A DNA stretch of 64,000 nucleotides from Octopus vulgaris (Eukaryota): assembly GCA_951406725.2 (NCBI GenBank), contig OX597824.1:14570001-14634000 (forward strand). The letters run 5' to 3'. Positions 14,745 through 59,039 of the stretch are shown piece after piece (within the stretch, counting starts at the first letter, position 1; each line of letters starts with the position of its first letter). Position numbers and translations under genes: made by a program. The notes under the pieces were generated by a model. That model saw only the letters and a program-made list of their open reading frames with translations. It was not told the origin of the DNA and ran no database searches.

Positions 14745-14782
<38 letters not shown>

Positions 14783-28316: not shown

Positions 28317-28357
<41 letters not shown>

Positions 28358-34752: not shown

Positions 34753-34808
34753 CTGTGAAATCATCTCTGGAGAACATATACCAAATTTGTCCATATGTAG
34801 ATAAAGCC
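34753..34808 (-). CDS. UBR2: UBR1/2 exon (56 nt)
   Basis: GLYLHMDKFGICSPEMISQ; phase 1-0. Confidence 0.87.
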
Positions 34809-35624: not shown

Positions 35625-35657
<33 letters not shown>

Positions 35658-36337: not shown

Positions 36338-36424
36338 CGGCAAAGAGGCGAATAACTGGTAAATGGATACTGACAGGCTGGCTAGCAACATCATATTTTA
36401 TACACTGGGCTACAATTCCTGCAA
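36338..36424 (-). CDS. UBR2: UBR1/2 exon (87 nt)
   Basis: VAGIVAQCIKYDVASQPVSIHLPVIRLFA; phase 1-1. Confidence 0.92.
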
Positions 36425-36529
36425 CTGAAATAGATGAAAATATATTATCTTAAAGGGAAATGTCACAAAGAATTTTACACAAATCAGGTACTGACTTTAC
36501 ATAAGACAAAATTTTCACCTGAGTTTCAT

Positions 36530-37057
36530 TTATATGTAGGACAAGGTTTTAACTTATATGTAGGACAAGGTTTTAACTTATATGTGGGACAAGGTTTTAA
36601 CTTATATGTGGGACAAGGTTTTAACTTATATGTGGGACAAGGTTTTAACTTATGTGTAGGACAAGGTTTTAACTTATATGTAGGACAAGGTTTTAACTTA
36701 TATGTAGGACAAGGTTTTAACTTATATGTAGGACAAGGTTTTAACTTATATGTAGGACAAGGTTTTAACTTATATGTAGGACAAGGTTTTAACTTATATG
36801 TAGGACAAGGTTTTAACTTATATGTAGGACAAGGTTTTAACTTATATGTAGGACAAGGTTTTAACTTATATGTAGGACAAGGTTTTAACTTATATGTAGG
36901 ACAAGGTTTTAACTTATATGTAGGACAAGGTTTTAACTTATATGTAGGACAAGGTTTTAATTTATATGTAGGACAAGGTTTTAACTTATATGTAGGACAA
37001 GGTTTTAACTTATATGTAGGACAAGGTTTTAATTTATATGTAGAAGAGGGTTTCAAT
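36530..37057. repeat. 24-bp intronic minisatellite, ~22 copies
   Basis: Unit ttatatgtaggacaaggttttaac; highly homogeneous. Confidence 0.95.
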
Positions 37058-37107
37058 TTACACATAAGACAAGGCTCAAATCTAGAAATAACAATGGTTG
37101 AATTTAC

Positions 37108-37201
37108 CATCACAATCTTCCATTTTATGGGCATCCAGTTTATCTCTACATTGGTAAAGGGTACAAAGAGTAGATCTAAAACAGTCACTAAAAACTGAAG
37201 C
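37108..37201 (-). CDS. UBR2: UBR1/2 exon (94 nt)
   Basis: ASVFSDCFRSTLCTLYQCRDKLDAHKMEDCD; phase 0-1 (different frame from the listed 230-aa ORF). Confidence 0.85.
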
Positions 37202-37839
37202 CTGAAAGTAGACAACAAGAGTTAGTGTGAAAGTATACAGTAGAAGGTGGAATGAAAGTTTACAGCATCACTTTACCTCTATTCAATCGAAATTACCAAA
37301 ATGTTTTCAGAGTTAGTGTTTTATAGATTTGCATTTCCTCAAAACCAAAATACACTAAAGATCAATACCCACATCACGGCCCTGCTTAGCAGTGTGGCTT
37401 ACCTGAGTAACACTGGCCCAGCATATATAATTGTAAATATGTACAACAGGTAAATACGGTTTCACAGCAAGTAAGTAAGTACAATACAAAGGACTAAAGT
37501 GCCTTGTAAGCCAAGAGTGATCAGTTCAAATCCTCACCTAGATCCAATGATTACGGAAGTCATCACAGCATGAAGAAAAATTTTTCCACACTGCTAGACA
37601 TGATAACTATATTCCTGTATGATCCATTTTACCTGACACGACAGCTATACACCCGTATGATACAGTTACAACAATAGCTGTTCACCTGTATAATTCATGT
37701 TATAATAAACGACAACAATACATCTATATGAGCCATATTGCAACACATGACAATTATACACCTGAGCGTATCCATGTTACAATTCACGACAAAAATACAT
37801 TTGTATGATCCATGTTACATGACATGACAACTTGATGTC

Positions 37840-38192
37840 TGTTAGCCAATGTCACTATAAAAACTTCCTTTGGTCAAGAATGACCATGGGATTGCACCTA
37901 GTGGTTACCTTCCAAGGCACATGTTCAGGCAAGGTTGTTATTAGAAGACCAGCAGTCACCCATACATACAAGCCTCGCCTCTCCACGCCACCAATGTTAT
38001 CCAAGGGAAAGGCTAAGACCAATACAGCTTGGTATCAGTGACATCACAACTCATTTCTACAGCTGAGTGAACTGGAGCAACGTGAAAAAGCGTCTTGCTC
38101 AAGAACACAGCACACGGCCCTGTCCGAGAATTGAACTCACTACCTCATGATTGTGAGCCCGACACTCTAACCACTGAGTCATGTGCCTTCAC
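37840..38192 (-). mobile_element. tRNA-headed SINE (additional family)
   Basis: Minus-strand head GACTCAGTGGTTAGAG...GAGTTCAATTC followed by CTTGAGCAAGAC..TGCTCCAGTTCACTCAGCTG core. Confidence 0.6.
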
Positions 38193-38352
38193 AATGTTAC
38201 AATACATAACAACTATCTGACAGCTTATACACCAGCATGATCCACAGGTCAGACCCAAGTCATAATATCTTAAGTAACCCACCATAAGAAAACAGGTGTA
38301 AAATAATTAAAAACAAAAACAATTTTAATAAACTTCAAAGTAAAATTCTTAC

Positions 38353-38481
38353 ATTACTGCCGCACCAGTCCAAAAACAAAGCAATGTTATCTTGTAAACG
38401 AAGTTGAAGATTAAATGCACTTTCCCATTCTGGTTCTATTTCTAAATGTTGACCAGTTTTACGGGTGACAGAATCCATTCC
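38353..38481 (-). CDS. UBR2: UBR1/2 exon (129 nt)
   Basis: GMDSVTRKTGQHLEIEPEWESAFNLQLRLQDNIALFLDWCGSN; phase 0-0. Confidence 0.95.
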
Positions 38482-38599
38482 CTGCAAAACAAGAAAAGAG
38501 AGATTGTAATGGAAACAATATTTAAAGAGTTGTTGTTTGTTGATAGTTTGTTTGGGACCATCTAAATAGCTCTATTGATTTATCTCTTATAACCCGACA

Positions 38600-39071
38600 A
38601 ATGAAGTGAGTTCACAGCTAGCAGGACGGCCTGCTGTGCTAACCTTGGATCGTAGAGTGACCTGCTGTTCTTGAGGAGACCTACTGAGTCAAGTACGTCA
38701 ACGCCAACATCAAAATAAAAATCAAATGGAAATTGTAGTTAAGATACCTGTGCCGGTGACAGATAAAAAGCACCGTCCGAACGTGGCAGATGCCAGCATC
38801 GCCTTGACTGGCGTCTGTGTCGGTGACACATTAAAGCACCAACCAATTGTGGCCATTTGCCAGCCTCCTCTGGCCCTCGTGCCGGTGGCATGTAAAAAGC
38901 ATCCACTACACTCACGGAGTGGTTGGTGTTAGGAAGGGCATCCAGCTGTAGAAACACTGCCAGATCAGACTGGAGCCTGGTGCAGCCTCCTGGCTTCCCA
39001 GAACCCGGTCGAACCGTCCAACCCATGCTAGCATGGAAAACGGATGTTAAACGATGATGATGATGATGATG
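38600..39071 (+). mobile_element. Retroposon family C (internal cacgtaaaaagcacc units; ...aacccatgctagcatggaaaacggacgttaaac(GAT)n tail)
   Basis: Most abundant repeat, variably 5'-truncated; copies near 7520-7788, 13027-13211(-), 19097-19325, 23533-23792(-), 29757-30021(-), 34340-34670, 35655-35895, 43005-43250(-), 44387-44775(-), 52680-53142, 59925-60280(-), 63790-64000. Confidence 0.85.
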
Positions 39072-39449
39072 AATTGGTATAACTCAGAAAAATCAAACAC
39101 TGCAAGTTTTATGTTTATGCCAATTTATTGTAGATTGAGTTTAGCATTTATTTCAGTTCAATGTGACCATCATTTGCTTTTTTTACCAGTTCAATCCCTT
39201 TACAAAATGAATGCACATGCCTTAACTATTTCTTTCTTTTTTCATTTTACTGAATGCTCGCTTGATTGAAGCCTTCATTGAAGACACATAGTTGTGTTAG
39301 ATATTGCTTCAGCTGCGCCATGCTCCAGCATGGCCACAGCCAAATGACTGAAACAAGCAAAAGAGTATAACTATTTTGCTGATGTTATTGAGCTGTGGAA
39401 GCTTCTTTTTGCTTACTAGACAGGTTCTTCAGTTTCAGAACTAACTTAC

Positions 39450-39555
39450 TTGTATGCTTATCAAAAGATCAAGCAATGCATTAAAGCCATTGCAGAAGCT
39501 TTTCTTCAATTGGTCTGTCCACTCTTCAGCACTTGGTTTACATAGCAATGCATAT
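39450..39555 (-). CDS. UBR2: UBR1/2 exon (106 nt)
   Basis: YALLCKPSAEEWTDQLKKSFCNGFNALLDLLISIQ; phase 2-0. Confidence 0.93.
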
Positions 39556-40234
39556 CTGAAATGTATGATAATGTATACAATATTAAAACTGCTAAATATA
39601 TATATATAAAGGAATGAGCCCCAAACATAATTAAATGGAAGCTCCTTGAACAACCAGGGACTCATATAAACAAGAGCAAACGATGTAAGCTTTAATTGGC
39701 AGAGAGCAAAAGAAGACTAAAAAAATTCGCTTGACCTGGAGACCTTTTTAAACTCCAAGAAAGAAGTATTCAGTCAATGCCCTCACCTAAAACATTCCCT
39801 ACTTCAGACTTGGAATTCTCCATTTGTTCAGTAGGCCAGCCACAGCTCATTTGAATATTACCACAGCCAAAGCCAGTGTAAAAGGGATAACTCCATCCCA
39901 TCACAGACAATTATTTTTTGTTTACAAAACCAATTGATTATTACATATTTCTTCCTCCAGTTGCAGAGAAGTTATGCACCTTCAGCTATATTTGAGTCTG
40001 ATGAGTCGCCTATACTGCTAAACATTTTATAGGTGCAAAACCAACGGTCATTCTTTGGCAGTGCGTAACTTTTTAAATATAAGTTCCCATCCACATATGA
40101 TATTAAATAAGTTCACAAGTCATATATCATAATATCAAATACAACTTATGAAATGTAAACTAACAATCTGCATATTAGAAGTAAATAATGAATATAATTA
40201 AATTTTGTCAGACTTGTGATTTAAATATAAAATA

Positions 40235-40465
40235 ACTCCAAAAAGTATTTCGTTTTTGTATTTGGTTTGCAAGATTCTTTATATGAGTCTGTGTGTTGAA
40301 GCATATTCTGTTGTGTTTGGGGAGAGACATTTTCTTTTTGTGCCTTATAATGTAACACACTCACTGGTAAAATTTCAATTTATAGAAAAATAGGAAATTT
40401 TACCGGTGAGTGTGTTACATTATAAGGCACAGAAAGAAAATGACTCTCCCCAGACACAACAGAAC
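40235..40465. mobile_element. Asymmetric hairpin repeat element
   Basis: ~70-bp inverted arms around a short AT spacer plus a one-sided extension; same family reversed at 54452-54677; single arm near 5318-5440. Confidence 0.75.
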
Positions 40466-41302
40466 TCAAACAAGGCTCCACTCTAGTGATTCAAGCACTC
40501 AAAATCCTCATCATTATCATCTATGTAAAGTAATTTAGGTGATGAGGCTACAGTGAACTTACTGATTAATTTACATAAAATCCACCCCATGCATATTTAC
40601 GTTTCACATATATTTAAGAATACTTGGATCCTTCTCCACAAAATAATAGGGGCAAACTGGCATTGGATAGAGTGTCTTGCAGTTTTTGATCTAGCTCCCT
40701 GCACCAGGAGTTCAAACCCCACTGAGGTCAACTGTGTTTCTGACCCCTTTTGGGGATCTATAAAGTACCTATTTCTTTACTACCCACAAGGGGCTAAACA
40801 CAGAGGGGACAAACAAGGACAAATGGATTAATTCGATTACATCGAACCCAGTGTGTAACTGGTACTTAATTTATTGACCCTGAAAGGATGAAAGGCAAAG
40901 TCGAACTTGGCAGAATTTGAACTCAGAACGTAACAGCAGACGAAATACCATTAAGCATTTCGCCCAGCATGCTCACATTTCTGCCAGCTCGCTGCTTTGG
41001 GGATCTATAAGGTACCACCTCTTGACTGGGATTGACTCTCCCACAGGAGGAAAATGACTGATCAGACCTGGAGAAGGATGGGTTCTGCTAAATCCAGAAA
41101 TGTCCAAAACACATCATGTCATGACAGTGCCCTTATACCTCTATCAAGAGTTCGATATGATATGGTTTCATTTATTGTCAGACCTCACAAAAACTTCTGG
41201 GGTTTTTTTTTTTTGCCTTTAATATTTTACAAACTTCTAATTTCCATATTTTGGAAGTTATCAAATCAAGTTAGCTTTACTCTATACACAAGAGCTACTT
41301 AC

Positions 41303-41381
41303 TTTAGATCATATAGTATAAACCAAGCTCTCTTAAACGAGTTGCCATTTTCACTTCTTCCAAATGATAATTTTCCTCTCT
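41303..41381 (-). CDS. UBR2: UBR1/2 exon (79 nt)
   Basis: RGKLSFGRSENGNSFKRAWFILYDLK; phase 1-2. Confidence 0.9.
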
Positions 41382-41666
41382 CTGCAACACAAATGAAAAC
41401 ATTAAAAATTAACTCAAAATTAAACCATTAACTTTGATAAGTTAATCACAACATAAATATTAATCAAATTCAGTAACATAAACGAATATTAAACACCAAT
41501 GCAATTAGTTAAAGAAACAGTATTAAATAAACAAAAGGTTACTGGATACTAGTTTTGAAAAGTGTTTGCAATGAAAGTTTTAAAAATGTACTTCAGGTAC
41601 AAGGAGGGGTAAACAGTTTTTTTTTTTCAACCATTCAGTAGCAAAGAGAAATAATCCTATAGATTT

Positions 41667-42205
41667 GGATTTAAATTAAATAATCCATTGGATTTAAACT
41701 GAATAATCCATTGGATCTAAAATGAATAATCCATTGGATCTAAACTGAATAATCCATTGGATCTAAACTGAATAATCCATTGGATTTAAACTGAATAATC
41801 CATTGGATTTAAACTGAATAATCCAATTGATCTAAACTGAATAATCCAATTGATCTAAGCTGAATAATCCATTGGGTCTAAACTGAATAATCCAATTGAT
41901 CTCAGCTGAATAATCCATCGGGTCTAAACTGAATAATCCATTGGATTTAAACTGAATAATCCATTGGATTTAAATTGAATAATCCATTGGATTTAAACTG
42001 AATAATCCAATGGATCTAAGCTGAATAATCCAATTGATCTAAGCTGAATAATCCAATTGATCTAAGCTGAATAATCCATTGGGTCTAAACTGAATAATCC
42101 ATTGGGTCTCTAAACTGAATAATCCAATGGATTTAAACTGAATAATCCATTGGATTTAAATTGAATAATCCATTGGATTTAAACTGAATAATCCTATGGA
42201 TTTAA
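41667..42205. repeat. 23-bp intronic minisatellite, ~23 copies
   Basis: Unit ggat(t/c)taaactgaataatccatt; self-complementary ggatt/aatcc ends. Confidence 0.95.
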
Positions 42206-42255
42206 AGAGTTAATGAATAAGAAAGCAAATGGGAAGTGAGAGTAAAACAACTTAC

Positions 42256-42337
42256 TATTCTTTTTACTTTCACATTGTTTTAAGAAGGTCTGCAATATCA
42301 CTCCCAACAGGTTGTGTTCTGTGATCAGGAAACGAGC
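42256..42337 (-). CDS. UBR2: UBR1/2 exon (82 nt)
   Basis: ARFLITEHNLLGVILQTFLKQCESKKN; phase 0-1. Confidence 0.92.
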
Positions 42338-45300
42338 CTATTACAAGGACAAAATGGTAGCATAATAATAGTTTTGTAAAGTTGCATAAGAATTAGAATT
42401 CTTATTTAAACATAAACCTCAAATAACAAAACATAACTTCAATTAATCACTAATAATTTGATTTCTTTTAGTCTGCTCCAGCCATGCGAGATAAGGTTCC
42501 ACTTCACAGTTCAGTGATCACAAATGGCATCCAGCAATAAAAAAAAACTATTTCAATTAATTAATTCCTACAAATTCCACAATTTCTATAAATATCTTCG
42601 TAGAGATATTTACTGTGATAAAATTTAACAGGGAAATGGTATGGGATAAGAGGAGGACAGACTGACTGTCCATCTTACTGAGGAGGTTGATAAGGTAAGG
42701 AGTTAAATACTGGAGGCTAATTTAATTCACTGTGCATTATTCCTCTTTCAGCAATCAGTGACATTATGTCAAAGCTAGTAGTCTATGTAATGTTCTTGAA
42801 TAAATTGTAACTGATACAAAGGAAATAAAACCATAGCTATTATATAAACAAGTATTCAAAAAAAGATAATCAAATACATTTTTAATTACACCAATTATTT
42901 TGTAATAGAGGTTATAATGGATTTCATTTTAAAAGTTCTCAGTTAATGAGGATGCTATTTACCAAAAGATAAACTTCATCAAATAATATCTTTGACATTC
43001 TCTCATCATCGTTTAATGTCCGCTTTCCATGCTAGCATGGGTTGGACGATTTTGACTGAGGGCTGGCGAACCAGATGGCTGCACCAGGCTCCAATCTTGA
43101 TTTCGCAGAGTTTCTACAGCTGGATGCCTTCCTAATGCCAACCACTCCGAGAGTGTAGTGGGTGCTTTTTACGTGCCACTGGCACGGGGGCCAGTTAGGC
43201 GGTACTAGCAACGACCTATATCGAATCTTTTTACACATGCCACCAGCACAGCATATATTCACTTATTTGTATTTATGTCTGTTTTCCATACTTGCATGGG
43301 TTAGATAAATATGCTGTTAAGGCATTGTTTTACAGCCAAATGCTTTCTGTTACTAACCTTTACTTTTTTTACAATTAAGGGATCTCATATCCCACTGGGC
43401 TTTGAAGGCACAAATGATTTGTTGATAGAATAACTGACAACAACAATACACACACACACACTCACAGAGTAATTCAGAATGAATGGTAAAAAAAAAACAA
43501 AAATAATACAGGTGAGTGTTGTAATTAATATATTGTACAATACAGATATTCTTTTTTTGTATCACTCATTTTGAATTACCGTGTATATATATATATGCAC
43601 AGACAATAGTCTTTTTTTCAGTTTCCATGAATCAAATCCTCTCACAACAAGGTTTTAGTCAGCTGAGGACTGTAACATGACACCTGCTCAAGGTGCCATG
43701 CAGTGAGGCTGAAACCCAAACCATGTGGTTGGGAAGTGAATTTCTTAACCACACACCCATGCCTGTGCCCTAAATATGCAATAACACTGATAAGCAGTAC
43801 TTGGATGTCTATTAAGGACTTCCATAATTATATTTTATTAATCTCTCTCTCTCACATCTGGTATACGTATGTGTGAAAGACAGAGAGAGAATAACAAAAT
43901 ATAATAGTGAAAATATTTAACAGACACCCAAGTATTGCTCAACAATAGAAATACAAGATTAAAATAAGACTTTATAAATACTTTAAAAGAGGCAATACTT
44001 TAAAAATGAAGACCATTTAAAGTTATTCACAGGAATGCCAGATATAACACAGCTCCAACAGAGTTTCTACTTAACAAAAAAAAAGTTTTTTTTAATGATA
44101 ATTAATGAAGGGAAAGCTAATGAACCAGTGAATTTCATTTTTTTAATGCCTTAGACAGAGGGGGAAAGGCAACACCAACAGCCTTTCTCAGGGCTTCAGG
44201 GAATGGTGAAAAGAAAAGAGGAAGTTAATCAAAGGCCAAAGACTTGATACAATAATTGCAACTGAATGCATTCTACTGAAGACAGTGAACTGGCAACTCC
44301 AAGACTTCAGACATGCTGCTTATTTGAAGTTTAGCTCTGTGCAATTAAATTTCATGATTATTCCAGTAATGATGTTAAATATCGATCATCATCATCATCG
44401 TTTAATGTCTGCTTTCCATGCTGGCATGGGTTGGACGATTTGACTGAGGTCTGGCGAACCAGATGGCTGCACCAGGCTCCAATCTCATCTGGCAGAGTTT
44501 CTACAGCTGAATGCCCTTCCTAACGCCAACCATTCTAAAAGTATTGTGGGTGCTTTTATGTGCCACCGGCACGAGGGCCAATCAGGTGGTACTGGCAACG
44601 GCCACGCTCAAATGGTGCTTTTTATGTGCCACCTGCACAGGAGCCAGTCCAGCAGCACTGGCAATGACCTCGGTCGAATGTTTTTTCAGTAAGGTGACGC
44701 AGGTAACGATCACGCTCGAATGGTGTTTTTTACGTGCCACCAGCATGGAGGCCAGCTTGTTTGCTCTGGCAACAATCATGCATAAAACAGAATTGTTATT
44801 TCCTACAAGTCATGTTATCTCAACAAACTTGACATGTCTCATCATAAAAATAGTTTCAAACATGACATTCCTCAAGAAAAAATAAATTGGTATATAAAAT
44901 TGGTTTCTGAAGTTTAGGGAGTGGAAATATCTGATTTCTGCAGTAGAAGGGGTTAATAGCTCTTGCCACACTACAAAAAGCTTTTGTATAGCTGGTTCAA
45001 ATTCTTGCATACTGATTGTTCGTAACTTTTGGGATTAAAATACCTGCAACATTTGCTGTGAATTCATTAATTCTTCTGCAAAACCCTGATCTGTTGCAAA
45101 TAAGCAGCTCAAATGTCTTTTTCCAAACCTGTTTATCCATATCAGGAAGTAGGAATGTCAAGAAATATTCTGATGACATAACGATACTTCTCATTGGTTA
45201 CTATTTACCATCAGCCTATGGTAAGGTTCTATAAATAATAGTTTAATCCATTTTGAAATAAGAATTAACTTATAGTTGTCAAAATATTTTAACTTTTTAT

Positions 45301-45369
45301 TGACAAACTAACATGACCTATTTCAGATGGTCAGATGTTTAATATGTGAGTGAGTGAGTGTGTGTGTGT

Positions 45370-45408
<39 letters not shown>

Positions 45409-45410
<2 letters not shown>

Positions 45411-46262
45411 GGGTGCGTTGGGTAAATTGTCACATTTTATATTTTTAATTTTGCACATGCACACCGTTTGTTTTTGATTTTGTTGACTACACAATATAGT
45501 AGGGTCAGTTGGGCACTATCTGTAAGAAAAACAGCATCCTGATGCAATTCCCTTTGCCATGCTGTAATGCTTGGCATTCATGCCAGAAGCTCCAATATGA
45601 ACATTTCAGAGTGTTTGTGGTTCAATTTGAGGACATGTACTGAGAGTGATAAAAAAAAAATCAAACCTCCCATCAACATCATGGTGTTTGGAGTGATCAC
45701 TAGTGATGGCAACACTATGCCTCCATTCGCCTTCGCACAAGGCCTCACACTCAACATGGAAGCCTACATCAAGTGCCTGGTGGAGGTAGTACTGCCCTAG
45801 GCCAAGAGGGTGGCTGCTGGAAGACCTTGTCTAGCAACAGGACTCTGCACCATGCCACACAAACAGGAGAGCCTAGTCATGGCTGTCAGACAATTTCTGC
45901 GACCACATCAACCCTAACATCTGGCTGTCTAACTCGCTAGACTGCAACGCCTTGATTATTATATGTGGAGTGCAGTTGAGCATGAGATTAGCAAAACTCT
46001 TTGTAACACCAAAAATGAACTGAAGGCAAGGATTATGGAAGCATTCACCAACTTAAACAAGGAGACTGTCCAGAAGAGTTGCAGGAGATTCTAAAGTCTT
46101 TTGGAGGCCGTGGTTGAAGCCAATGGCGATTTTATTGAATAAATTTACTCTTTAGTATTTCAAGATATTTTTATGTAATTTTGGTAAATAGATCTTAAAA
46201 TGAGATGTCAGTTATTTTTTATTTATGCGCAATTTAGACAACAGTTTATTCACTGCACCCTG
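45409..46262 (+). mobile_element. Degenerate Tc1/mariner transposon, DD37D (maT) type
   Basis: cagggtgc...gcaccctg termini next to a TA repeat; IMVFGVITSDG..MPP, QQDSAPCH...DCNxLDYYMW with ~37-aa D-D spacing; stops and frameshifts. Confidence 0.85.
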
Positions 46263-46856
46263 TGTGTGTATGCTTCCCCTTTTTACTCTTCTACTTGTTT
46301 CAGTCATTTGACTGTGGCCATGCTGGAGCACTGCCTTTAGTCGAGCACATCGACCCCAGGACTTACTCTTTGTAAGCCTAGTACTTATTCTTTCGGTTTC
46401 CTTTGCCGAACTGCTAAGTTACAGGGACGTAAACACACCAGCATCGGTTGTCAAGCGATCTTGGGGAGACAAACACAGACACACAAACATATACATACAT
46501 ATATACGATGAGCTTCTTTCAGTTTCCGTCTACCAAATCCACTCACAAGGCTTTGGTTGGCCCGAGGCTATAGTAGCCACACAGTGGGACTGAACCTGGA
46601 AACATGTAGTTCGTAAGCCAGCTACTTACCACACAGCTACTCTTATGCCTATATATATATATATCAATAGTAATGTATTGCAAAATGTCTCAAATTATAC
46701 AACTACAAGAAACATTTCTCAGATCTTTTAATGATGACATCTGGCAGCATATATTTCTGTGATGGAAATGGAAATTAGTCTAAAAACATAGGTTTAGGTA
46801 ATTCCTTTAGATATGGAACACTGCTTAAGAATGAGACAGCAGTAGAAACAACCTAC

Positions 46857-46955
46857 CACCTTAGGAGCTGTGAAAATCTGAAGGGAATCAGAGATAATGG
46901 AAACCGATCGTAAATGATCATCCTTGATAAAGTTCTGCATAAGTTGAGCATAGTG
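46857..46955 (-). CDS. UBR2: UBR1/2 duplicated exon, copy B (99 nt, candidate mutually exclusive)
   Basis: tag|HYAQLMQNFIKDDHLRSVSIISDSLQIFTAPKV|gtaggt; phase 0-0; 16/33 aa identical to copy A; long polypyrimidine tract. Confidence 0.88.
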
Positions 46956-47005
46956 CTAAAATAAGAAACAAGAAAATCAAAAGAAACGGTAATAAAAAGG
47001 TTATT

Positions 47006-47081
47006 ACATGGCAGTATTTTGCATTTACATAATCAATTACAACATATAACGTAAATAACAGCCATAAATATCAACTTTACT
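47006..47081 (-). promoter_or_regulatory. 3' arm of putative intronic long-range RNA stem (pairs with 48554-48632)
   Basis: Plus strand acatggcagt...tgcatttacataatcaattacaa...taaataacagccataaatatcaacttta is collinear with the reverse complement of 48554-48632; ends 50 nt before the exon B acceptor. Confidence 0.65.
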
Positions 47082-48553
47082 TGGTCATCCTAACAATATA
47101 TAAACAGTTCTATCAAATGAGTTTAACTAAATTTTAAAATAGGTGAAAAGAGTACGTCGTTAGTGATATTTTTTTCATAGTTGAAAACAATTAGATATAA
47201 ACACGTTTAGCTAATTCAGTTTTTAACAATCTAAATTTCTTTTTGTGGATAAATGCTTCAGTAGGTTGTACTTTCAATAAAAAAAAAAAGAATTTAACTG
47301 TAAAGCAATACAACTATTTAAAACTACTGCAGGGGAGTATATCAAATTTGATAAATTTCTGTTTCATGGTTATCAATTGTATTAACAATTACAACAATTG
47401 CTATTAAATTAGCAAATATTTGCTTTAAAAACGATAAAACAAATAGTTATGCTATTATTATAAAGCAATTATTCATGCAACAATAGCATTTGGTGGTGCT
47501 GCCAAGGACAAACAATTTCTTTAAAAGAATTTCTATTGTTTCAGTTGTTTTGTTACTTATTTGGCTCAGAAAATTATAAGAAAGTATATTTTTTTTTAAA
47601 TAAATTTTAAGAAGTTTAACAAAAGCAAAAATGAAAATAAAAAAAAAATTTCTATATATGGAATATTCTCAGAGAAGCTTTGCAATACTGCATTTTAATT
47701 TTGATTTCATTTCTTTTTTTTTCTCCAGCATGTAGTTAAGCAAGCGCTAAAGATTGTTTAAAACAAGTAATAATTCAACCATTGAAACTTCCAGAAAACA
47801 ATGAAATCTTCATTAAAATATTACTGTAAATCAATGTCACATGTTAATTAATTTAGATAAAGGTAAGGCCAATTAGTGATATGCCTTTTTTCCCATCATT
47901 TTTAAAATGAAATGAAAAAGAACGGGGAGAAATGTTTGTAATAAGCAGAACACACTTCAGCTTTGTACACTTTCATTCAACTAAAAGATTTATGAAAACT
48001 GTCTTGTAATATTTGTTTAACCTGGTGTAATTTTTTTTTTTTTTAATTTTTTTTTAATGGTAGCTAACCATGTAGACCAATCAGCAAACAAGTATTGCAA
48101 CCAGTGCAATAGTGTGCAAACTATAAACAATATAGACACCAGGATTAAAACCAAGATACCTGCAATTCCTAAACGATTGCTTTCTCCGCTTAACAGTCAG
48201 TTGCAGCACCAATTTAAAGTTAGTTTTTAAGAAATGCTAGGAAACACTTAAAAGAAAATAAACTATATTGCATTACATAATTTGTTGCATTCAGCTACAA
48301 ATGAAACCTGTCTGAACACCAAGTTTATTTGAAAATTAAATATCTAACCAAGAATATCAATCTCATTCTATTTGTCAATATTGCTGAATCCTCAAAGAAT
48401 CCAACCAAGAATTTAAAGGATACCAAAAAGTAACATGTCATTTAAGTTCCTTGATAGGATCAGCACAATCGCTAGATGGACCTAATTATACCTACTTCTA
48501 TACTAGTGTGCAGGTTAATTAATTTCATGTAACATCAAGTCTAACTGAGGCAC

Positions 48554-48632
48554 AATAAAGTTGATGTTTGGCTGTGATTTATGCTCAGGTGTTTGAAATT
48601 GTTTATGCAATTGCACAGTAAAACTGCCATGT
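48554..48632 (-). promoter_or_regulatory. 5' arm of putative intronic long-range RNA stem (pairs with 47006-47081)
   Basis: Pre-mRNA ACAUGGCAGU...UGCAAUUGCAUAAACAAUUUCAA...UAAAUCACAGCCAAACAUCAACUUUA; starts at intron nt 20 after the exon A donor. Confidence 0.65.
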
Positions 48633-48651
48633 GCTTTCCTGATTAACATAC

Positions 48652-48750
48652 CAGACTGGTCAGAGTAAAGATTTGGACAGAAAGGGACACGACGGACACT
48701 TCATGGTCGTGGTCATCTTGTAAAAAGTCTTCCATCAGTTGAGAATATTT
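48652..48750 (-). CDS. UBR2: UBR1/2 duplicated exon, copy A (99 nt, candidate mutually exclusive)
   Basis: cag|KYSQLMEDFLQDDHDHEVSVVSLSVQIFTLTSL|gtatgt; phase 0-0. Confidence 0.94.
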
Positions 48751-51700
48751 CTGTGGAAATATAGCACAGTAACATTTCATTGACCTAAACACGGCCAAAC
48801 CAGACAGTAATTTGAAGAGAACAAAAAAGGGGAAAGAGAATAACTGTATTGATTTGTCAGGAAAGGATATCAAAGTGGAAAAGAAATTGAGGGACACCAA
48901 TGACTTGGCTGGAATTTAGAACAGTTTTTATTATTAAAAAATATAAAATAAAAAATAAAATGGAACAGATCAATATACAATTATATATAGTTTAAAATTC
49001 AGATCAGGGAGAAATGAGCCAATATATGTGTGTCTACACCAAATTTAGAGGAATTATATAATACAATATTGTAGTGAACATTAAAAACTAATGCTAGCAA
49101 TTTTTAATAGATTTAGAGCTGCCTAATTTTTAATAGACTCTCAGACTTTTGGCAATAGTTTTATCTACAGTTCAATCAATACACATTCTTGTTCTGTCTA
49201 TTGTTAAAAAATACTGTATTCTGGTACAAAATAATGAAGTTAGTAGTTTATTACTGGTAGAGTTGATAAACTAGAAATTAATTAAAAGCAACAGAAATTA
49301 ATTTTAAAATGTGATTGGGGAAATGTTCCTTCTTCAAGATTTTCTCAGTATTTATATCTTTTACGACAGACTCATTCTATGTGATGCTCAGGTTTTTGCT
49401 ATGAATGTTCTGTTATACAACTTCAGCACAGCATCACATAACTTGATTCGCCAACTGAGACACTAACTCCTTAGTGTATAAACCAGCCATATCTGGCCCA
49501 GATATTCTACATGTTTTATATTCAAACTGGCCAGGTCCAGCCTCTCACACCTAACCTACAGTGACATTCTAACGATAAACAATCACATCATTGAAACCTC
49601 AAAGCTATAAGATAATGCAGGATTAATTCAAAACAATTTGAGCGAAAGAGTATTACATTTAACAGAGTAATCTGAACACAAAAGGGTTAAGTATTATTTC
49701 ACACTGAACATTCCCCTATTAACTAAAAGTTAACAAAGAATGAATTTTCTTTAAACTGAGATTTTGCAGTAAGAAATAATTGTGATCTACCAATTACTAC
49801 ACACTTCATCTTAAGTTTTCCTTATCCTAAAATGGCAATACAATAAATTTAATCTTGATTTTTTTTCTTCTTTTTACAACAATGTTTTTAATGTGTCTTG
49901 AACCTTTACTAATTTTATCATAATAATTATCACCATCATCATCTGCCTTCCATACTGGCAAGGATGGGACTAATTATAAATTTACTAAATAAGCAACTAA
50001 TTAAACTAAGCAGTTTTGCAAAGTATCTTTCCTGTCCTGTATTTGTAAATAATTGAGTAAACAACATAATCATATGAGGAATAGTTTAATATATTTCAGC
50101 ACTATCCCCATTAAAGATGCTGGTATTTCTACTAAACTTAAAGAAAACCCCTGCTAAAAATATCTAAGGGGACATAGTGGGGAAAAAAAGTAAGGCTCTC
50201 ACATTTACTCTATAAAAAATCAACCACTTAACCTGGTATTTTTTATCTTTTACTTGTTTCAGTCATTAGACTGTGGCCATGCTGGGGCACCACCTTGAAA
50301 AAATTTTAGTTAAATGAATCAACCCCAGTTCTTTTTTTTCACCCCTTTTTAAGCCTGGTACTTGTTCTATCAATCTCTTTTGCTGAACTGCGAAGTTACA
50401 GGAACATAACCACACTGAAACTGGTTGTCAAGCAGTGGTGGAGGTGGTGACATCACACACACACACAATGGGCTTCTTTCTGTTTCCATCTACAAAATCC
50501 ATTCATAAGGTTTTGATCGGCCCAAGATTATAGTAAAAGACACTTACCCAATGTGCCACATAGTGAGACTGAACCAAGAACCATGCAGTTGGAAAACAAG
50601 CTTCTTACCACAAAGACACACCCAGCATTATTATTATTATTATTATTATTATTATGAATTTTGTAAACGAATGTTCAAATTAGGCAACTAGATTCACTAG
50701 CATTAGGTAAAAAAATATTAAGGCCACTATTAATTTATCAATCAGGTAATCTCCCAACAATTTATGACAAATAGTTTTTATTATTAATATCCTTTTCTAC
50801 TCTAGGCACAAGGCCCGAAATTTTGGGGGAGGGGGGCCAGTCTTCAGTCAAATCGTCCAACCCATGCTAGCATGGAAAGCAGACGTTAAACGATGATGAT
50901 GATATGCCCAACCAGCCATATCTTAACTAATTTTGCATCCTTTCATATAATTTCCTTTTTCACAAACAGAAAGGGATGCTTATCTCATTTCTCTCTACAG
51001 ATCATCTCTATTCAATGATGCTGACTCATGTAGCCTCATTCTCTCTGCACATGTATTATACAACCTATCTTTTGTGGAGAGAGAGAGAGAGAGAGAGGGG
51101 GTATTCTGTTGCTGGAAGTATTTCCTGAATTTCTTCCAAACTGGCTGGGTTTTTTATTTTCCTTCTTTACTCCAATTGCAAAACTTTTACTATAACCACA
51201 CCCATCAGTAACCAAGCTACCTTAGGTAACAGAAACTGCCTAGTATTATCCTGCAGTTTCAATATTGCTTGCAACAAAACCTGAATGATAAAAGTCAGCA
51301 GTGTGAAGTTATCAAAGGATCTATGACAACAAAACAGAAATAGGTAGACTCTTTTAAAACTTATGTGAGAATGAACATAAAAGGCACTGAGTGATCTAGT
51401 GATATGGACACTGGAATGTAAATGAGTGAGGATAGCTGAAGGTTAACAAGGTGCCCTTAATTCGTAGAAGAAGACACCAGTGTAGGAGTAAGGAGGCTAG
51501 AGAAGCGTTGGAAGTTCAGGTTAGATCTGAGAAAGTGAGATCCTACAAATGAGATTACACAATAAATATAAAGTAAAGCTTTGTTACTGATATTTAAAGC
51601 AGGTTTCTCATGGGAAGAAGGTTTGCTGTAAAAGGTGAAACAGAGGAGGTAAACTGTCGTGTTTAATAGCAATTTGTCATCTTCTTAAACCTCTTAGTAT

Positions 51701-54451
51701 TCATCTCAAATATAATGCTTATTTATTCACATGGTTTCGAATTAATCTTGCATTATCTGGTAGCCCTTAGGTTTCAGTGATGTGATTGTAAGGTAGGCGT
51801 GAGAGGTCAATTTGAACATAAAACAGGTGGAGTATTTTGGCCAGATATCACCAACTTAACTGCTTAGGAGCGAAGAGGGTTTTAAACTTGTCTAGCATCA
51901 TGATGAAGAAAGAAGAATTATATGAATGCAAACTATACTGTCTAAGTGGAGGAGGCCAAAAAAGCCGATTGTGCTATTACAAGCACAAGTGTTGCAGTGC
52001 ACTAAGAAGCTTGCTTCCAAACCAATGGTGTCTAGTTCAGTCTCAATGTGTAGCACCATGGGCTAGTCTCTTCTACTATCGCCCTGGGCTAACCAAAGCC
52101 TTGCAAGTGGATTTGGTAGATGGAAACTAAAAGAAGCCTGTTTGTGTGTTTCATTTTGTCCCCAATAGAATAAGTACCAGGCTTACAAAAAAATTTTAAA
52201 AAGGCTTGTCCTTTCAGAAACTGGTGCCTATGCTGGTGCTGCATTGACGCACCAGTGCCAATGGCACATAAAAATCACATGGCACACTTAAGTGGTTGGC
52301 ATTAGGAAGGGCATCCAGCCGTAGAAACCATGCCTCAACAGACAGCTCCCTTCTAACCAGCCCCATGTCAAACTGTGCAACCCATGCCGGCATGGAAAGT
52401 GGAAGTTAAACAACAACGATGGGGTTGATTCATTTGACAAGAAAAAGTTTACAAAATGGTGCCCCAGCATGGCCACAGTCTAATGACTGAAACAAGTAAA
52501 AACGATTAGCTGAAAGAAGTGGAGATATTTGTCAGTTTAGCAGGCACTGATTAAAATAAAGATGATGATGATGATGATGCACAGTATGTTCAACTGCAGC
52601 CTACACAAGCATCTCCACTTTGCACATTTTGCTCCTCTTAATGTATCAGTCAAATCTCCCTTAAAGTTTCCAATTAATTTGAATTGAAATCAAAATCAAA
52701 TTAGATGACTGGCATCCATACCAGTGGAGTGCTAAGAGTACCATACGAACGTGATCATTGCCAGAGCAACTAACTGGCCTCCGTGCCGGTCTTAGTAAAA
52801 AGCACTATTTCAGCGTGATCGCTACCTGCACTGCCTTACTGGCACCTGAAAAAACATTCGGGCGAGGTCATTGCCAGTGCCGCTGGACTGGCTCCTGTGC
52901 AGGTGGCACATAAAAAGCACCATTTGAGCGTGGCCGTTGCCAGTACTGCCTGACTGGCCCTCATGCCAGTGGCACATAAAAGCATCTACTACACTCAGAG
53001 TGGTTAGCATTAGGAAGGGCTTCCAGCTGTAGAAACTCTGCCAGATGAGATTGGAGTTTGGTGCAGCCATCTGGTTTGCCAGTCTTCAGTCAAATCGTCC
53101 AACCCATGCTAGCATGGAAAGCGGACGTTAAATGATGATGATCTTGTGTTTCTGCCAAACCATAAATCTAAACTAGTAACCATCAAATACTGACACACAA
53201 TCTGTACCAATACCAACACAACTTAGATGTATCTATTATTTTCAACTTACTTTTGTTAACTCTATGTAAACATACTCTCTATTCCATTCCCTAAAACATT
53301 GGTATATGAAATTATCATTCATACCACACAATCTTCTCTAAATTATATTTATTAACATTTTGATCATCTCTACACTTGTTCTGTAAGCATTTTGATTTTA
53401 ATTCACCTTTCTAAATCTTAGCTGCATTTTTACTGATACAGTAAACAATATAAATATTGATCACATCAATGTGATGGTTACTTAAACTTATTTATTTACT
53501 ACCCACAGGGGGCTAAACACAGGGAGGACAAACAAGGACAGACAAACGAATTAAGTCGATTATATCGACCCCAGTGCACAACAGGTACTTATTTAACTGA
53601 CCCTGAAAGGATGAAAGGCAAAGTCGACCTCGGCGGAATTTGAACTCAGAACATTAGCGGCAGAAATACCACTAAGCATTTCGCCCGGCGCCCTAACAAT
53701 TCTGCCAGCTCGCCGCCTTAAACTAGATCGCTGTGGGCAGGATGGTTACTTAAACCTATTATATCTATCACTGATCTAGGTCTAACTTTTAAATGCTTAA
53801 ACTTGTTTATATTCTGAAAATAATTTTAAAAAAAAATAAAACCTACAGAAATTACTATGAACAATACTACTAGATACTACATCAACAAATTGTAAAGATT
53901 TAGAGAAATTTTGAATTTGTTCATTAAAACAAGATACTGTGAAGTCTTAAGCCTTTTCCTAATTTAGTTAAAATACATTCACTCGTGTTGTCATTCTAGG
54001 GTTGAAAAGCTCTTGAGCAGGGGTTCCCAAATTAGAATTGACACCAATTTAATAATTCTGGATTTATACATTTTTGTTTTTAATTATAATTTTAACAATT
54101 CTGAAGTTAAGAAAATTTGAATGCGGCCAATTTTGTGAAAAAAAATACAAATTATATATTTTTTTCTTTCTACCATATTAGATTTAATGATCAGTATTGT
54201 ATAATTCTTAATTACTGTGTTACAAATGGGGAAGTTAGGAAGACTAGTATATAAATGACATAAAACTGCAATGTACTGTGTATTCTTTATTGTTATTTGA
54301 ATAATGTCTAAGCTTTTGTTACCATATTTCTGTTGGAATATGCTGCTTTTGTTTCAACTGATTTTGAAAATGATGAAGAATTTAGTAAAATAACTGTCAT
54401 TATTAAGCTAGTGTTTGGAACACAAATTAACATGAAAATTTGATGAAAGGT

Positions 54452-54677
54452 CTGTTGTGTCTGGGGAGAGTCATTTTCTTTTTGTGCCTTATAATTTAAC
54501 ACACTCACCGGTAAAATTTTAGGAAAATAAAGATGAAAAATAAGTGGAAATTTTACCGGTGAGTGTGTTACATTATAAGGCACTGAAAGAAAATTATTCT
54601 CCCCAGACACAACAGAATATGCTTCAACACACAAACTCATATAAAGAATCTTGCAAACCAAATCCAAAAACGAAATA
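54452..54677. mobile_element. Asymmetric hairpin repeat element nested in a TTAA MITE
   Basis: 12-bp TSD ttgatgaaaggt (54440-54451/54678-54689); same family as 40235-40465. Confidence 0.78.
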
Positions 54678-55860
54678 TTGATGAAAGGTATTAAGTGGGA
54701 AGTTTGTATCACAGAACAAAGGTTTCTCAAGTGGACTGGTAGCAAAAGGGTTAAAAACAGCATTTAAAAAATTTCCTTTTTGTTGGTTGTTTTATGAAGG
54801 TAGAAGTGTAAATTCAAATTACTGAACTAAACAGAATTGCAGAATAAATTTACTTTGCAAAAATTGCAAGGGGTAAATAAATAAATAAATAAATAAAAAA
54901 TGGTTGGGAACTCCTGCTCTACAGATTTAGAGAATTATATATATATAAAAAAAAAAGTGTTTTGATGTCAGAGAATGAAGAATTTCAACAGTCAACTCGA
55001 AGTTTCACATGGTTCTTAAACTGTATAATAAAAATATGAAACTTTTTCTATTTAAAAAAAAAAAAAATGTAACATATTGCAATAAACTTATTTATAGCCC
55101 TATTATAATAATACTTTTAAAAAATTACAATGAAATAGTACTGGATTTGGCAATTCTGGGATTCAGATTAACACCAGAAGAAAAATTACAACTTTTTAAG
55201 AAAAGTTGGTGATAATCATTAAAAAAAACTGGAATAATATTCAATTATAATTTTAGGTACTGTATGCTCTAATCTAATAATAATAAGGTATTATCACAAG
55301 TTTAATTCTATAATCAGGTACCATAAGCTATAACCTAGAAACTGCAGCTATAAAATAAAACCAATTCATTGCAAACAGTTCATTCGTTTACTTGGTAATG
55401 TGTTATATACCATGTAGTTATTTTATATTTTGATCAACAGGCTTTCAGTTAAAGTCGCTGTCTCATGAGATTTCGCTATATAAATTCCAACAAGTTTTAC
55501 ATTCTTATGTAATAATAGATGTGTAAACCTTGACACAGCAATAAAAACAGCAGTAAGCTATGTTCTGAACAGGGTCAGTAGAGTATAAGAGACTAAGATT
55601 AAAATTTAGGAGTAAGATTTATGGAACACTAAACTATCATTTGGATAACATTGTCTATAAATAGAGATAATTAAATGACAGCAATAGATCATAAAACAAA
55701 CTAAAAAAACAACGTTGATTCTTAAACTGGGATAGTCAATAATTTACTGAGGACACTGTGGTAATAAATCTAGCATTTTTATTATTCGTGATTAGAAAAC
55801 AAACAAAAGCAAAATTATTAAAAAAAATTTTCCTATTGATTAAAAAAAAAATGTTCTTAC

Positions 55861-55912
55861 CTCAGTAAACATCACTCCAAACTGACGTTTACATTCCTGA
55901 TCCCTCAGAACC
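55861..55912 (-). CDS. UBR2: UBR1/2 exon (52 nt)
   Basis: aag|VLRDQECKRQFGVMFTE|gtaaga; phase 2-0. Confidence 0.9.
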
Positions 55913-56085
55913 CTTCAAAGAAAATATACCAAATAACGGTTTGAGCACTGAACGTTCAAGCAGTGGTTATATAAAACACAAAACATCAGTAAAAGTACAT
56001 CATTAAGAATATGACACCATGTTTTTAATATTGCAGTCTATCAACTCATAAAATAGTCACAAAGTTCGTTAAATGATGTATTTAT

Positions 56086-56494
56086 CATCATCATCATTGT
56101 TCGACCGTGGTCGAGACAATGGAATTTACCATGCTACGCCACACTTCACGGTCCATCATGGCATTACGGAGGTCCTGTTGCTGGATGCCTGTATCCCTGG
56201 AGATTACATCAGAGTAAGAGAGTGTGCGCCCTCTGGTATTGTGAGTAGATGGCTTCCAGAGGAGAAGAGTAGAAATTGCCTCGTTTTCAGCTCTACAACA
56301 ATGTCCAGCAAACTGGACTCTTCTACCTTTCACAAGAGATGACACAGGTGGTAGTTTCCCATATAATTGTATTTTTTTTTTTTTTTTTGCATGAGAGGCG
56401 GTTGGATGGAACCTACACTCGCCTCCTTATGAGAGCTCAAAATCTCTCGTGGAAGCATCATCCAACCAAAATGCAAATATGTGGGAAACTATGA
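56086..56494 (-). mobile_element. RTE-related LINE 3' end with inverted 5' segment
   Basis: Minus: YGKLPPVSSLVKGRRVQFAGHCCR...MMDREVWR + (GAT)n tail; plus: ERRLDGTYTRLLMRAQNLSWKHHPTKMQI; TSD gatgtatttat. Confidence 0.82.
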
Positions 56495-56734
56495 GATGTA
56501 TTTATAATGTGATTTGATAGTCAAAAATTACTGATAACAAGTGTGTATAAACATATACACACACTGAATTAGTTGCTAAAATTTTAAATGTAAATATCAG
56601 AAAAAATATGAGAATCACTTTGAGACATATAGAAGTGTGGGTGCTACTTTGGTATGCAATCTACATAACCAACATGGTCTACAAGAGTCAAATTCCACTT
56701 TAGGATGTGATCTACAAGTTTCATTTATTCATTA

Positions 56735-57236
56735 CTAGCAGTATCGCCCGGCGTTGCTCGGGTTTGTAAGGGAAATAACTATATAAGCATTTTTAGAGAG
56801 TTACTTCCCTTATAGATGCCAATTCGGGCTTTCTTAGCCATTTCTGTTTTGGTGTCTTCAAGCCATGAAGTCGTTGTTCTAAAAGAACACTGGTCTCCTT
56901 GACAACGCATTACGACATTGATTTCCTTACACTCCCTTTCCCACAGCTTCACGAGGGAGGGAAGAAGGGGGAGAAGCAAACAGGTGCAGGTGTGACCATG
57001 GACGCCAACTCCGCCGCCATCGACACACGAAAAATTATGCATTAAAATGGAATAAAAAATGATGTTAAATTATTTTTAAAATCGTAGACTCATGCTAATA
57101 CTCAGAAGGGCTCGATATGAATCACGACTATAAGATACCCGAATTTGGTTAAACTGCACCGCAAAATGTGGGAGTAGTTAGGAATCTAAATCGAAGGGGA
57201 CAGACACTCACACAACTACAGTTTTATATATATAGA
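56735..57236 (-). mobile_element. Non-autonomous Helitron-like element
   Basis: Reverse orientation: TC start at 57236, hairpin cccgagcaacgccggg, CTAG end at 56735. Confidence 0.75.
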
Positions 57237-57515
57237 TGACTTAAATAAAACATTCTTACATATTTATACATTTATTTTAAAAAATTAAAATGAAGCAGAT
57301 TTGAAACAAGTTTACTAATTTTATGGGTGAATCGAACAAACGAACGAATCAAATGAATGGGCAAATCAAACAAACATCAGCTAGAAAAGTAAAAAGTAGA
57401 TAATTAAAATTTTAATACATTTAGTATTTAAAAGAAATTAGAATAAAGCAAATTTAAACAAGTTTGCTAATTTTATTGTTAATACATTTATTATTAAAGT
57501 TTATGATTTAATACA

Positions 57516-57812
57516 TCTTTATATATAAAATTCAAGTTGTGTGTGTGAGACTCTGTCTCCTCCGCTTTAGATTCCTAACTACTTTTACATTTTGCAGTGC
57601 AGTTTAACCAAAAGCGGGCATCTTATAGTCGTCATTCATATCGAGCCCTTCTGGGTATTAGCGCGCGTCTATGATGAGTCTATGATTTAAAAAAAAATTT
57701 ACCATCATTTTTCCGCATTTTTGCTCGGGTTATATAAGGGAAGTAACTCTCTAAAAATGCTTATATAGTTATTTCCCTTACAAACCTGAGCAACGCCGGG
57801 TGATACGGCTAG
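57516..57812 (+). mobile_element. Non-autonomous Helitron-like element (internally shorter sibling of 56735-57236)
   Basis: A|TC start, cctgagcaacgccggg hairpin, CTAG|T end. Confidence 0.75.
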
Positions 57813-58035
57813 TTTATTATTAAAAAGAAATTAGAAAGAAGCAAATCTGACGCAAGTTTACTAATTTTATCAGTGAATCAAACAAACGTCAGGTGTTTTC
57901 CTTGTTCTTACTAAGTATAACTTTTCACGTTGTAGATCACAATCTAAAGTGTATTTCACATACCAAAGCAGTTTCATATGTAGACCACATACCCCAAAGT
58001 AGCACCCATATGTGTATATGTAAGCATATACCTAC

Positions 58036-58072
58036 CCACTCATCAATAGCTGATGACTTTGTATTCTGGCAA
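58036..58072 (-). CDS. UBR2: UBR1/2 small exon (37 nt)
   Basis: tag|IARIQSHQLLMSG|gtaggt; phase 1-2; required to bridge neighbouring phases. Confidence 0.9.
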
Positions 58073-58940
58073 CTAGAAAAGAGAAAGAAAATTATTATAC
58101 ATTAATATAACTATTTGAAAGATTCATTCTACATTTACTGTTTCACTTACATTATTCTAGAACATAGCTGGAACAGCCTATTTGCTGGGAAAACTGTTTT
58201 TATGTTGAGATATTAATTTACTGATAAGCACCGAAAGAATAGAATTTTGTCTTTTGTATAAAACTAGAGAACTGGAGCTAGCAGAGTTAATGGTATTGCT
58301 CAAGGAAGGCGCTGAGCTAGCTGAATCATTAGCACATCGGTCAAAATGCTTAGCAGTATTTCATCTGCTGCTATGTTCCGAGTTCAAATTCCGCCGAGGT
58401 TGTTTTGCCTTTCATCCTTTCAGAGTCGATTAAATAAGTACCAGTTACGCACTGGGGTCAATGTAATCGACTTAATGTTTGTCTGTCCTTGTTTGTCCTC
58501 TCTGTGTTTAGCCCCTTGTGGGTAGTAAAGAAATAGGTATCTTTGGTCGGTCTGAGGCTATAGTCAAAGACACTTGCCCAAGGTGCCAGGCAGTGGGACT
58601 GAACCCAGAACCATGTGGTTCGTAAGCAAGCTACTTATCACACAGCCACTCCTATGCCCATAGGAAAAAAAATTTTCATTAAAAGATAACATTACTTTTA
58701 ACATCATCTTACATATTAGAACATCTACAATATAGGTGTATAGTGTGGATTACATATAATGAGAGATGCAGCATTGAGAATGAATGAAGCCAGCTCAAAC
58801 CACCCCAGGTGAATGCTGTCTCAAGACAAGAAGACTTAGATGGAACTACATTATGATTCCAAGTGGAATAAAATTTTTTAAAAAAGCTGTAAGGATGTGT
58901 CAAGTGTAATAAAGAAAACATTACTAATTAATCAACTTAC

Positions 58941-59039
58941 TTTTCCACAGCTTGGTATCGGCCAGAATCAGACGCTCCATCAGTGAACCACCTTCAGCAG
59001 GCTGCATGGCTAACTTACAAAATAAATATCGCAGCCCAT
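58941..59039 (-). CDS. UBR2: UBR1/2 exon (99 nt)
   Basis: DGLRYLFCKLAMQPAEGGSLMERLILADTKLWK; phase 1-1. Confidence 0.93.

Follow-up and report, generated by a model that had tools for sequence, protein, structure and literature searches.

A UBR1/2 gene of Octopus vulgaris contains two similar exons of 99 nt, which raises the questions of whether the two are alternatives, how old the arrangement is, what would keep them from being joined to one another, and what their exchange does to the protein. Part of the gene lies in the window (the whole stretch of DNA that was analyzed, 64,000 nt), and its identification as UBR1/2, which an earlier note had made from the letters alone, held up. Counting exon A, 40 exons of the gene are in the window, the 39 introns between them are mismatch-free against an Octopus protein (39/39 junctions), and the octopus protein matches human UBR1 and UBR2 over its full length. 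Pfam identified in both isoforms the UBR box (residues 95-162), a ClpS-like domain (219-297), a winged helix (765-861), and a C-terminal domain. The parts of the gene concerned are these:

26..61853, minus strand: the part of the UBR1/2 gene inside the window, encoding residues 264-1708 of about 1,754
55861..55912, minus strand: upstream constitutive exon, 52 nt, ending in phase 0 at a GT donor
48652..48750, minus strand: exon A, 99 nt, phase 0/0, bordered by AG and GT, with loop positions 15-17 D-H-E (acidic)
46857..46955, minus strand: exon B, 99 nt, phase 0/0, bordered by AG and GT, with loop positions 15-17 L-R-S (neutral-to-basic)
42256..42337, minus strand: downstream constitutive exon, 82 nt, starting in phase 0

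Elsewhere in the gene, two acceptors lie 18 nt apart (21786 and 21768), alternative use of which adds six residues in some annotated isoforms, and two intronic tandem arrays with units of ~23 nt are present at 41665-42206 (23.5 copies) and 36425-37107.

The earlier note had described A and B as a tandem pair, and in its particulars that description was exact: the two exons share length, phase, and AG-GT borders, neither contains a stop, either one joins the named ends of the flanking exons in frame, and the translations are as quoted, identical at 16/33 residues (55/99 nt). Identical bases number 18, 27, and 10 (each of 33) at codon positions 1, 2, and 3, and synonymous sites are saturated (pS 0.87, pN 0.33). 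The intron sequences flanking the exons are dissimilar, as had been claimed, with 17-18 of 60 nt identical, which is background. The BLOSUM62 score of A against B was 87, compared with a maximum of 14 (sense) or 24 (antisense) in the rest of the three introns and 12-37 in a shuffle control (n = 8 shuffles), so that the likeness is not due to chance and the third copy that the note had failed to see is indeed absent. A search of the octopus's own genome with exon A returned, among the best candidates scored, two matches, which were A and B themselves. The acceptor of A is weak (5.8 bits, in the lowest quartile of the gene) and the pyrimidine tract before B is strong (15.0 bits). Residue 23 of B is Asp in octopus and Argonauta and Leu, Ile, Val, or Met in all other copies; the site is otherwise hydrophobic and the change recent. 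At position 48703, in exon A, one run of another organism (X6) has G for A on the plus strand, which is likely a species difference.

How the exons are used can be read from the mollusc UBR1/2 proteins that span the region (n = 28), of which 18 carry A alone, nine carry B alone, one carries both, and none lacks both; constitutive inclusion of the two together is contradicted by 27/28 of these proteins. Two Logan proteins of 1,753 residues, P0008 and P0012, which cluster with cuttlefish UBR2, are identical at 1736/1753 positions and all 17 differences fall inside the exon. Their contigs, of 6,019 and 6,090 nt, bear full-length proteins and hence represent spliced RNA, and a full-length protein with B only is encoded by a contig of transcript length. 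Six isoform pairs (one squid-like, one from each of two Octopus species, and one from each of three Haliotis species) differ at 17 positions and in the exon only, which agrees with the mutually exclusive use proposed in the earlier note. In RefSeq, Octopus sinensis (X1 and X2), Haliotis rufescens, H. cracherodii, and H. asinina are each represented by an A and a B isoform; the idea that B is unannotated in general must be dropped, as RefSeq/GenBank isoforms carry it. The Octopus vulgaris models have RefSeq-style names, may have been copied from O. sinensis, and are not independent. The sole protein with both exons, P0005, is a genome model of Sepia pharaonis (1,782 aa) that reads A then B, and the joint form was found in 0/5 full-length Logan proteins and 0/12 RefSeq XP models over the region. 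Based on these proteins and gene models, we are highly confident that the exon was duplicated and that A and B are used one at a time, so that there are two isoforms, each full-length, with 17 residues different between them.

B is the path taken in 1/10 full-length Logan contigs of the P0008/P0012 cluster. If contig building keeps the commoner path, B would be dominant in some samples. Contig depth is unfit for ranking exons and we give no A:B ratio. A run search on 46760-47050 listed 24 runs, none of them recorded as RNA, which we did not count as evidence; 14/24 were guessed to be RNA, with 0.20-0.64 of 25 words present. The bin containing B was covered in 4/4 runs aligned to 42230-55960 (mean depth 2.2-7.2), and bin arithmetic in these four runs is compatible with exon-limited cover for A.

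Both copies have been kept in squid, cuttlefish, abalone, and an invertebrate contig (L003) that came from a metagenome scan yielding 218 candidate stretches and seven loci. Octopus A is identical to squid and cuttlefish A at 31-32/33 residues, and B is identical across cephalopods at 26-28/33, about the rate of the whole protein (82-89%). Abalone A matches octopus A at 21/33 residues and octopus B at 16/33, and abalone B matches octopus B at 20/33 and octopus A at 16/33. In AU tests on 11 rows, separate duplications in cephalopods and gastropods were rejected (p 0.029-0.034); with 17 rows, three separate duplications had p 0.036-0.052, and a separate duplication in the invertebrate contig, at p 0.26-0.32, was not rejected. 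Five columns separate all A-type exons (n = 5) from all B-type exons (n = 6). The invertebrate contig has both 99-nt exons in octopus order, with an A-B intron of 554 nt. Five other loci, L004 and L005-L008, contain a single copy, which does not form an exon of its own (L006-L008 are repeats of L005 and were excluded from the tree). In the animal-like UBR1/2 of L005 (5998-6096; also L006-L008) an intron lies at the 3′ border of the segment and none at the 5′ border, and in L004 neither border has an intron, so that the segment is an exon in its own right in some lineages only. Searches with B gave 0 candidates among short proteins and a single match, P0034, among 1.84 billion proteins. The retention of both copies, together with the values of pS and pN between them, points to purifying selection on each, and judging by sequence we place the duplication before the split of cephalopods and gastropods; that there was a single origin for these two groups we consider very probable. 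That split occurred >500 million years ago. The suggestion of an old duplication with both copies under selection is upheld.

A similar pair exists in vertebrates. In human UBR2 the same exon is duplicated, with 70 nt between the copies (event 232; supplements of PMC8373072 and PMC9741552), and hamster (CHO) Ubr2 has two 33-residue exons with 19 residues in common, according to the accessible part of bioRxiv 10.1101/863175. The human event was dated to Gnathostomata (PMC8373072), in a study that searched bilaterians only for events found in tunicates or lancelets (PMC8373072 section 7), and it is likely that molluscs were never examined for the UBR2 event in the published dating. We also identified a fish-like contig (L009) with two copies, V1 and V2, 73 nt apart. 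The exon borders are identical in molluscs, fish, and human, leading us to ask whether molluscs and vertebrates share one duplication or had two.

We consider it probable, from comparison of the exon sequences, that molluscs and vertebrates duplicated this exon separately, because the vertebrate copies are mutually closest and are arranged in the opposite order. Mean identity between the fish copies is 20.0 residues, compared with 15.6-18.1 in the four mollusc-vertebrate pairings and 16.2 between mollusc A and B; identity across the lineages exceeds the latter value for A only, and equally to V1 and V2. The clade of V1 and V2 received an SH-aLRT of 86.6 and a bootstrap of 70. Fish have the copy with Ser at 32 and acids at positions 15 and 17 in the downstream place, whereas in octopus and the invertebrate contig that copy is the upstream one. 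For human, the order of the copies rests on UBR2 being on the plus strand, which we take to be the case.

The rival reading, a single duplication before the protostome-deuterostome split, after which either the order changed or vertebrates re-duplicated a copy, with arthropods losing the pair along with its flanking introns, is feasible but in our opinion doubtful. The identical exon borders speak for it, as does the sharing of an acid at 17 and Ser at 32 by A-type exons and V2, where two single-copy outgroups have Ala/Gly and Thr. Shared-origin trees were not rejected by AU (17 rows, LG, p 0.06-0.33), and an old duplication with later re-duplication in vertebrates fits equally well (p 0.65-0.75), on a phylogenetic signal that is small (33 columns). 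Against it, V1 resembles V2 more than either resembles a mollusc copy, so that in the published test for ancestral events the splice sites are the same while the between-lineage values do not exceed those within lineages (PMC8373072 section 7). In addition, the copies run in opposite order when matched by positions 17 and 32, and Ser at 32 occurs in one fish V1 too, which marks the site as labile. The published dating likewise stops at jawed vertebrates, although bilaterians were unsearched for the UBR2 event (PMC8373072).

Since a transcript containing both A and B would be in frame, decay cannot be the safeguard against the joint product. In octopus the intron between the exons contains the following elements:

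46956..48651, minus strand: A-B intron, 1,696 nt, without repeats, with a single genome match (itself)
48554..48632, minus strand: predicted 5′ arm of an intron-closing stem, starting 20 nt past the A donor
47006..47081, minus strand: predicted 3′ arm of this stem, which stops 50 nt ahead of the B acceptor
48159..48257, minus strand: predicted 5′ arms of inner stems (pairs 48257-48241/47259-47236 and 48199-48159/47333-47295)
47236..47333, minus strand: predicted 3′ arms of the two inner stems
46956..47005, minus strand: unpaired 3′ end of the intron, with candidate branch adenines at 47001, 46990, and 46977 (by eye) and the strong pyrimidine tract noted above

A helix scan of 28 region pairs revealed a perfect 10-bp match (48632-48623/47015-47006) that alone is not significant; this core extends to 59 pairs at p>0.5 and 37 C (48632-48554 with 47006-47081). 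The duplex between the intron ends (first 100 and last 130 nt) was calculated at -65.8 kcal/mol, with a z of -9.1, and 0/300 dinucleotide shuffles were as good. Equivalent segments of 35 other introns gave z values of -2.5 to +1.5, and 0/1,332 cross-pairings of intron ends reached -37.5, the value obtained with shorter segments; the segments were chosen after the stem had been seen and were applied identically to all controls. The whole A-B intron of octopus folds with a z of -2.8 only (15 shuffles). A control fold of 36425-37107 was dropped as this region is a tandem array. No AG-free zone in the gene is longer than the one around the 3′ arm, 117 nt (about 117-119). Self-repeats cover 0% of the A-B intron and 11-55% of 23 other introns >900 nt, a comparison from which a composite 6,314-nt row that spans B was left out. 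A genome search with the A-B intron, of a kind that skips common words, produced no second match, and neither in the window nor in the genome search did the stem arms recur. Rfam gave 0 matches on 46600-49500.

We propose that the ends of the A-B intron are brought together by this predicted stem. With the stem folded, 19 + 50 = 69 nt would be left unpaired, which would put the A donor about 25 nt away from the branch-adenine candidate at 47001, 36 nt from that at 46990, and 49 nt from that at 46977. U1 and U2 are described as unable to bind jointly below a limit of ~50 nt (accessible parts of PMC5740500 and PMC7969005), and a donor-branch distance under ~50 nt would not admit the two together, so that joining of A to B would fail. 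On this modeled geometry, the stem probably blocks A-B joining by steric exclusion. A distant branch point of the OGDH type was considered and ruled out, as the intron contains 74 AG dinucleotides and its AG-free zone is 117-119 nt. In vertebrates the intron between the copies is truly short, 70 nt in human (from coordinates), 73 nt in the fish-like contig, and 63 nt in P0034, and in the fish-like contig every possible branch adenine is <=39 nt from the donor; we think it rather likely that this short intron imposes the same block, after a separate duplication.

An alternative for octopus is that exclusion is exerted by splicing factors or by competing pairing and that the stem has another job, as a substrate for editing, a relic of an inverted-repeat element, or a spacer. 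In the invertebrate contig the A-B intron is structured (z -4.55, 0/100 shuffles; z -0.82 for its upstream intron), with no end-to-end pairing detected, as 286/300 and 64/300 shuffles were equally good in two tests of its ends. There, 71 nt separate the donor from the first strong stem and 57 nt remain between the last strong stem and the acceptor; given the unpaired ends and the 71 nt, the steric geometry of octopus is not repeated in this contig, whose folding supports the proposed stem mechanism in part only. The octopus and L003 introns have no common sequence (best E 0.14). Control by factors would also fit the weak acceptor of A and the strong acceptor of B with its long AG-free zone, and in Drosophila Rdl predicted structures are dispensable, as stated in the accessible part of PMC13762713. 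For competing pairing, a docking-site and selector scan of 28 region pairs found beyond chance a single competing helix, of 11 bp (55466-55456/46841-46831), which links the beginning of the upstream intron, a repeat-free part, to a site 15 nt behind the B donor. It was matched by 0/20 shuffles, but is one of 28 comparisons; such a helix could tip the choice toward A. Set against these points are the placement of the stem, 20 nt from the A donor and 50 nt from the B acceptor, leaving a distance almost equal to the length of the vertebrate intron, and, with respect to another job, the lack of further copies of the arms in the window or genome search and the repeat-free state of the intron. We consider this alternative possible, though unlikely.

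Steric exclusion by the stem, the mechanism that we favor, would itself be in question if the isoform with both exons were real, the stem then bridging the A donor to the B acceptor and the protein gaining a 33-residue tandem insert. P0005 does read this way, and stems that shorten introns may help splicing (accessible part of PMC11802352). However, P0005 is 1/28 proteins and derives from genome annotation, the Logan and RefSeq XP sets contain no second example, and an extra helix-loop-helix within a packed scaffold would be unlikely to fold, making the joint isoform very improbable. As for B being a decaying pseudo-exon, its faster change than A across cephalopods and its unusual Asp at position 23 in octopus could be cited in favor, but B changes at the rate of the whole protein (82-83% octopus-squid identity), retains length, frame, and splice sites, is found in abalone and the invertebrate contig, and occurs without A in a spliced full-length contig, which refutes this reading and leaves it practically no probability.

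Two further features around the exons were observed. Inverted repeat copies of ~300 nt (44391-44689/52846-53142; 89-92% complementary, 8 kb apart) flank both exons, which they could loop out jointly, and could otherwise act as editing substrates; inverted repeat pairs are common in introns of this gene. The upstream constitutive exon lies in the second-longest repeat-free run of the window (2,041 nt, 54678-56718), a candidate regulatory region.

The residues encoded by the exon, 389-421 of the octopus protein, correspond to 395-427 of human UBR1/UBR2 and to 546-579 of yeast Ubr1 (eye count), between the ClpS-like and winged-helix domains, in the helical scaffold that extends from Ubr-Box2 to the winged helix. 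The acceptor-ubiquitin loop of yeast Ubr1 is given as residues 678-681 in the accessible part of bioRxiv 10.1101/2021.04.12.439291, which puts the exon ~100 residues ahead of it and, we infer, in region C of that preprint as far as its accessible part defines it. Structure predictions were poor (pLDDT 62.7 and 49.5) and gave helix, loop, helix across the exon in both cases; a fold search gave 0 matches at E<=0.001. Two of the five columns that separate A from B are in the loop (positions 16 and 17). Net charge is -3 to -5 for A-type and 0 to -4 for B-type exons, and the copy with the acidic loop is the more negative in 7/7 species pairs (five invertebrate, two fish). Our tentative suggestion, about which we hold slightly more doubt than belief, is that the swap retunes a putative surface loop in the helical scaffold, which is acidic in A and neutral to basic in B, and in this way alters partner binding or chain-building. 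N-degron recognition would be unaffected, as both isoforms have the UBR box and the ClpS-like domain.

The pair belongs to a known class, tandem-duplicated mutually exclusive exons, and its isoforms are already in RefSeq; what is new is the mollusc-wide age, the vertebrate parallel, and the predicted stem. We found no paper on the mollusc UBR1/2 pair, its stem, or the function of the UBR2 swap, in a literature search from which subscription journals were mostly missing. The human UBR2 isoform pair has been catalogued, and a mollusc pair at the same exon and the same loop positions indicates which residues to test. A single origin, if true, would push the published date back from jawed vertebrates to the ancestor of bilaterians; two origins, if true, would add a ubiquitin ligase to convergent cases that are dominated by ion channels and muscle genes. 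Independent duplications could even represent a threefold convergence, on the exon, on the switch between acidic and neutral at matching loop positions, and on steric exclusion (a 63-73-nt intron as opposed to a 1.7-kb intron that an 80-nt stem folds to 69 nt); we regard this as speculative and rather improbable, but if it were true the scaffold loop would be an unrecognized control point of N-degron ligases. In either case the stem offers a precise and cheap test case for structure-aided steric exclusion in a mollusc. On balance we lean toward the account as a whole, that is, an old duplicate used either-or, joining blocked by the stem, and a separate duplication in vertebrates.

Comparison with known systems places the octopus pair nearest to UBR2 of human and hamster, which has the same exon with 99-nt borders and 33 residues, and two isoforms of equal length as in octopus. 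In both pairs the copies are told apart by loop positions 15 and 17 and by position 32; they are identical at 19/33 residues in human UBR2 (eye count) and at 16/33 in octopus. The two pairs differ in that the vertebrate intron is 63-73 nt long, whereas that of octopus is 1,696 nt with a predicted closing stem, and in that the copy with the acidic loop is downstream in vertebrates and upstream in molluscs. In mechanism the octopus pair is likely, by analogy, to work as does the exon 17 pair of Drosophila Dscam, in which, in work by Yue and colleagues from 2013, steric hindrance is reportedly combined with RNA structure. Both have two exons, a kilobase-scale intron, and long-range pairing, which in octopus is predicted. 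The Dscam helix is listed as 15 nt across about 1,000 nt in a table of PMC6027157, and the predicted octopus stem is far longer, at 59 pairs and ~80 nt per arm. For OGDH exons 4a/4b, the accessible part of PMC7969005 describes exclusion by a donor-branch distance of < ~50 nt and an intron that resists transposons; octopus resembles OGDH in the short donor-branch distance predicted for the folded intron and in an intron that has kept out repeats. The branch points of OGDH adjoin the donor and are followed by a long AG-free run, whereas AG occurs 74 times in the octopus intron and its AG-free zone is only ~117 nt, and for this reason the closeness of donor and branch must come from folding. ATE1, which acts in the same Arg/N-degron pathway as UBR1/2, also has a duplicated exon pair, 7a/7b, described as being under RNA-structure control in the accessible part of PMC11802352 and reported to be common to the common octopus in that of PMC8373072. 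The two cases diverge in that ATE1 is counted as a single bilaterian event and has competing pairings, while for octopus UBR1/2 separate origins and one non-competing stem are favored.
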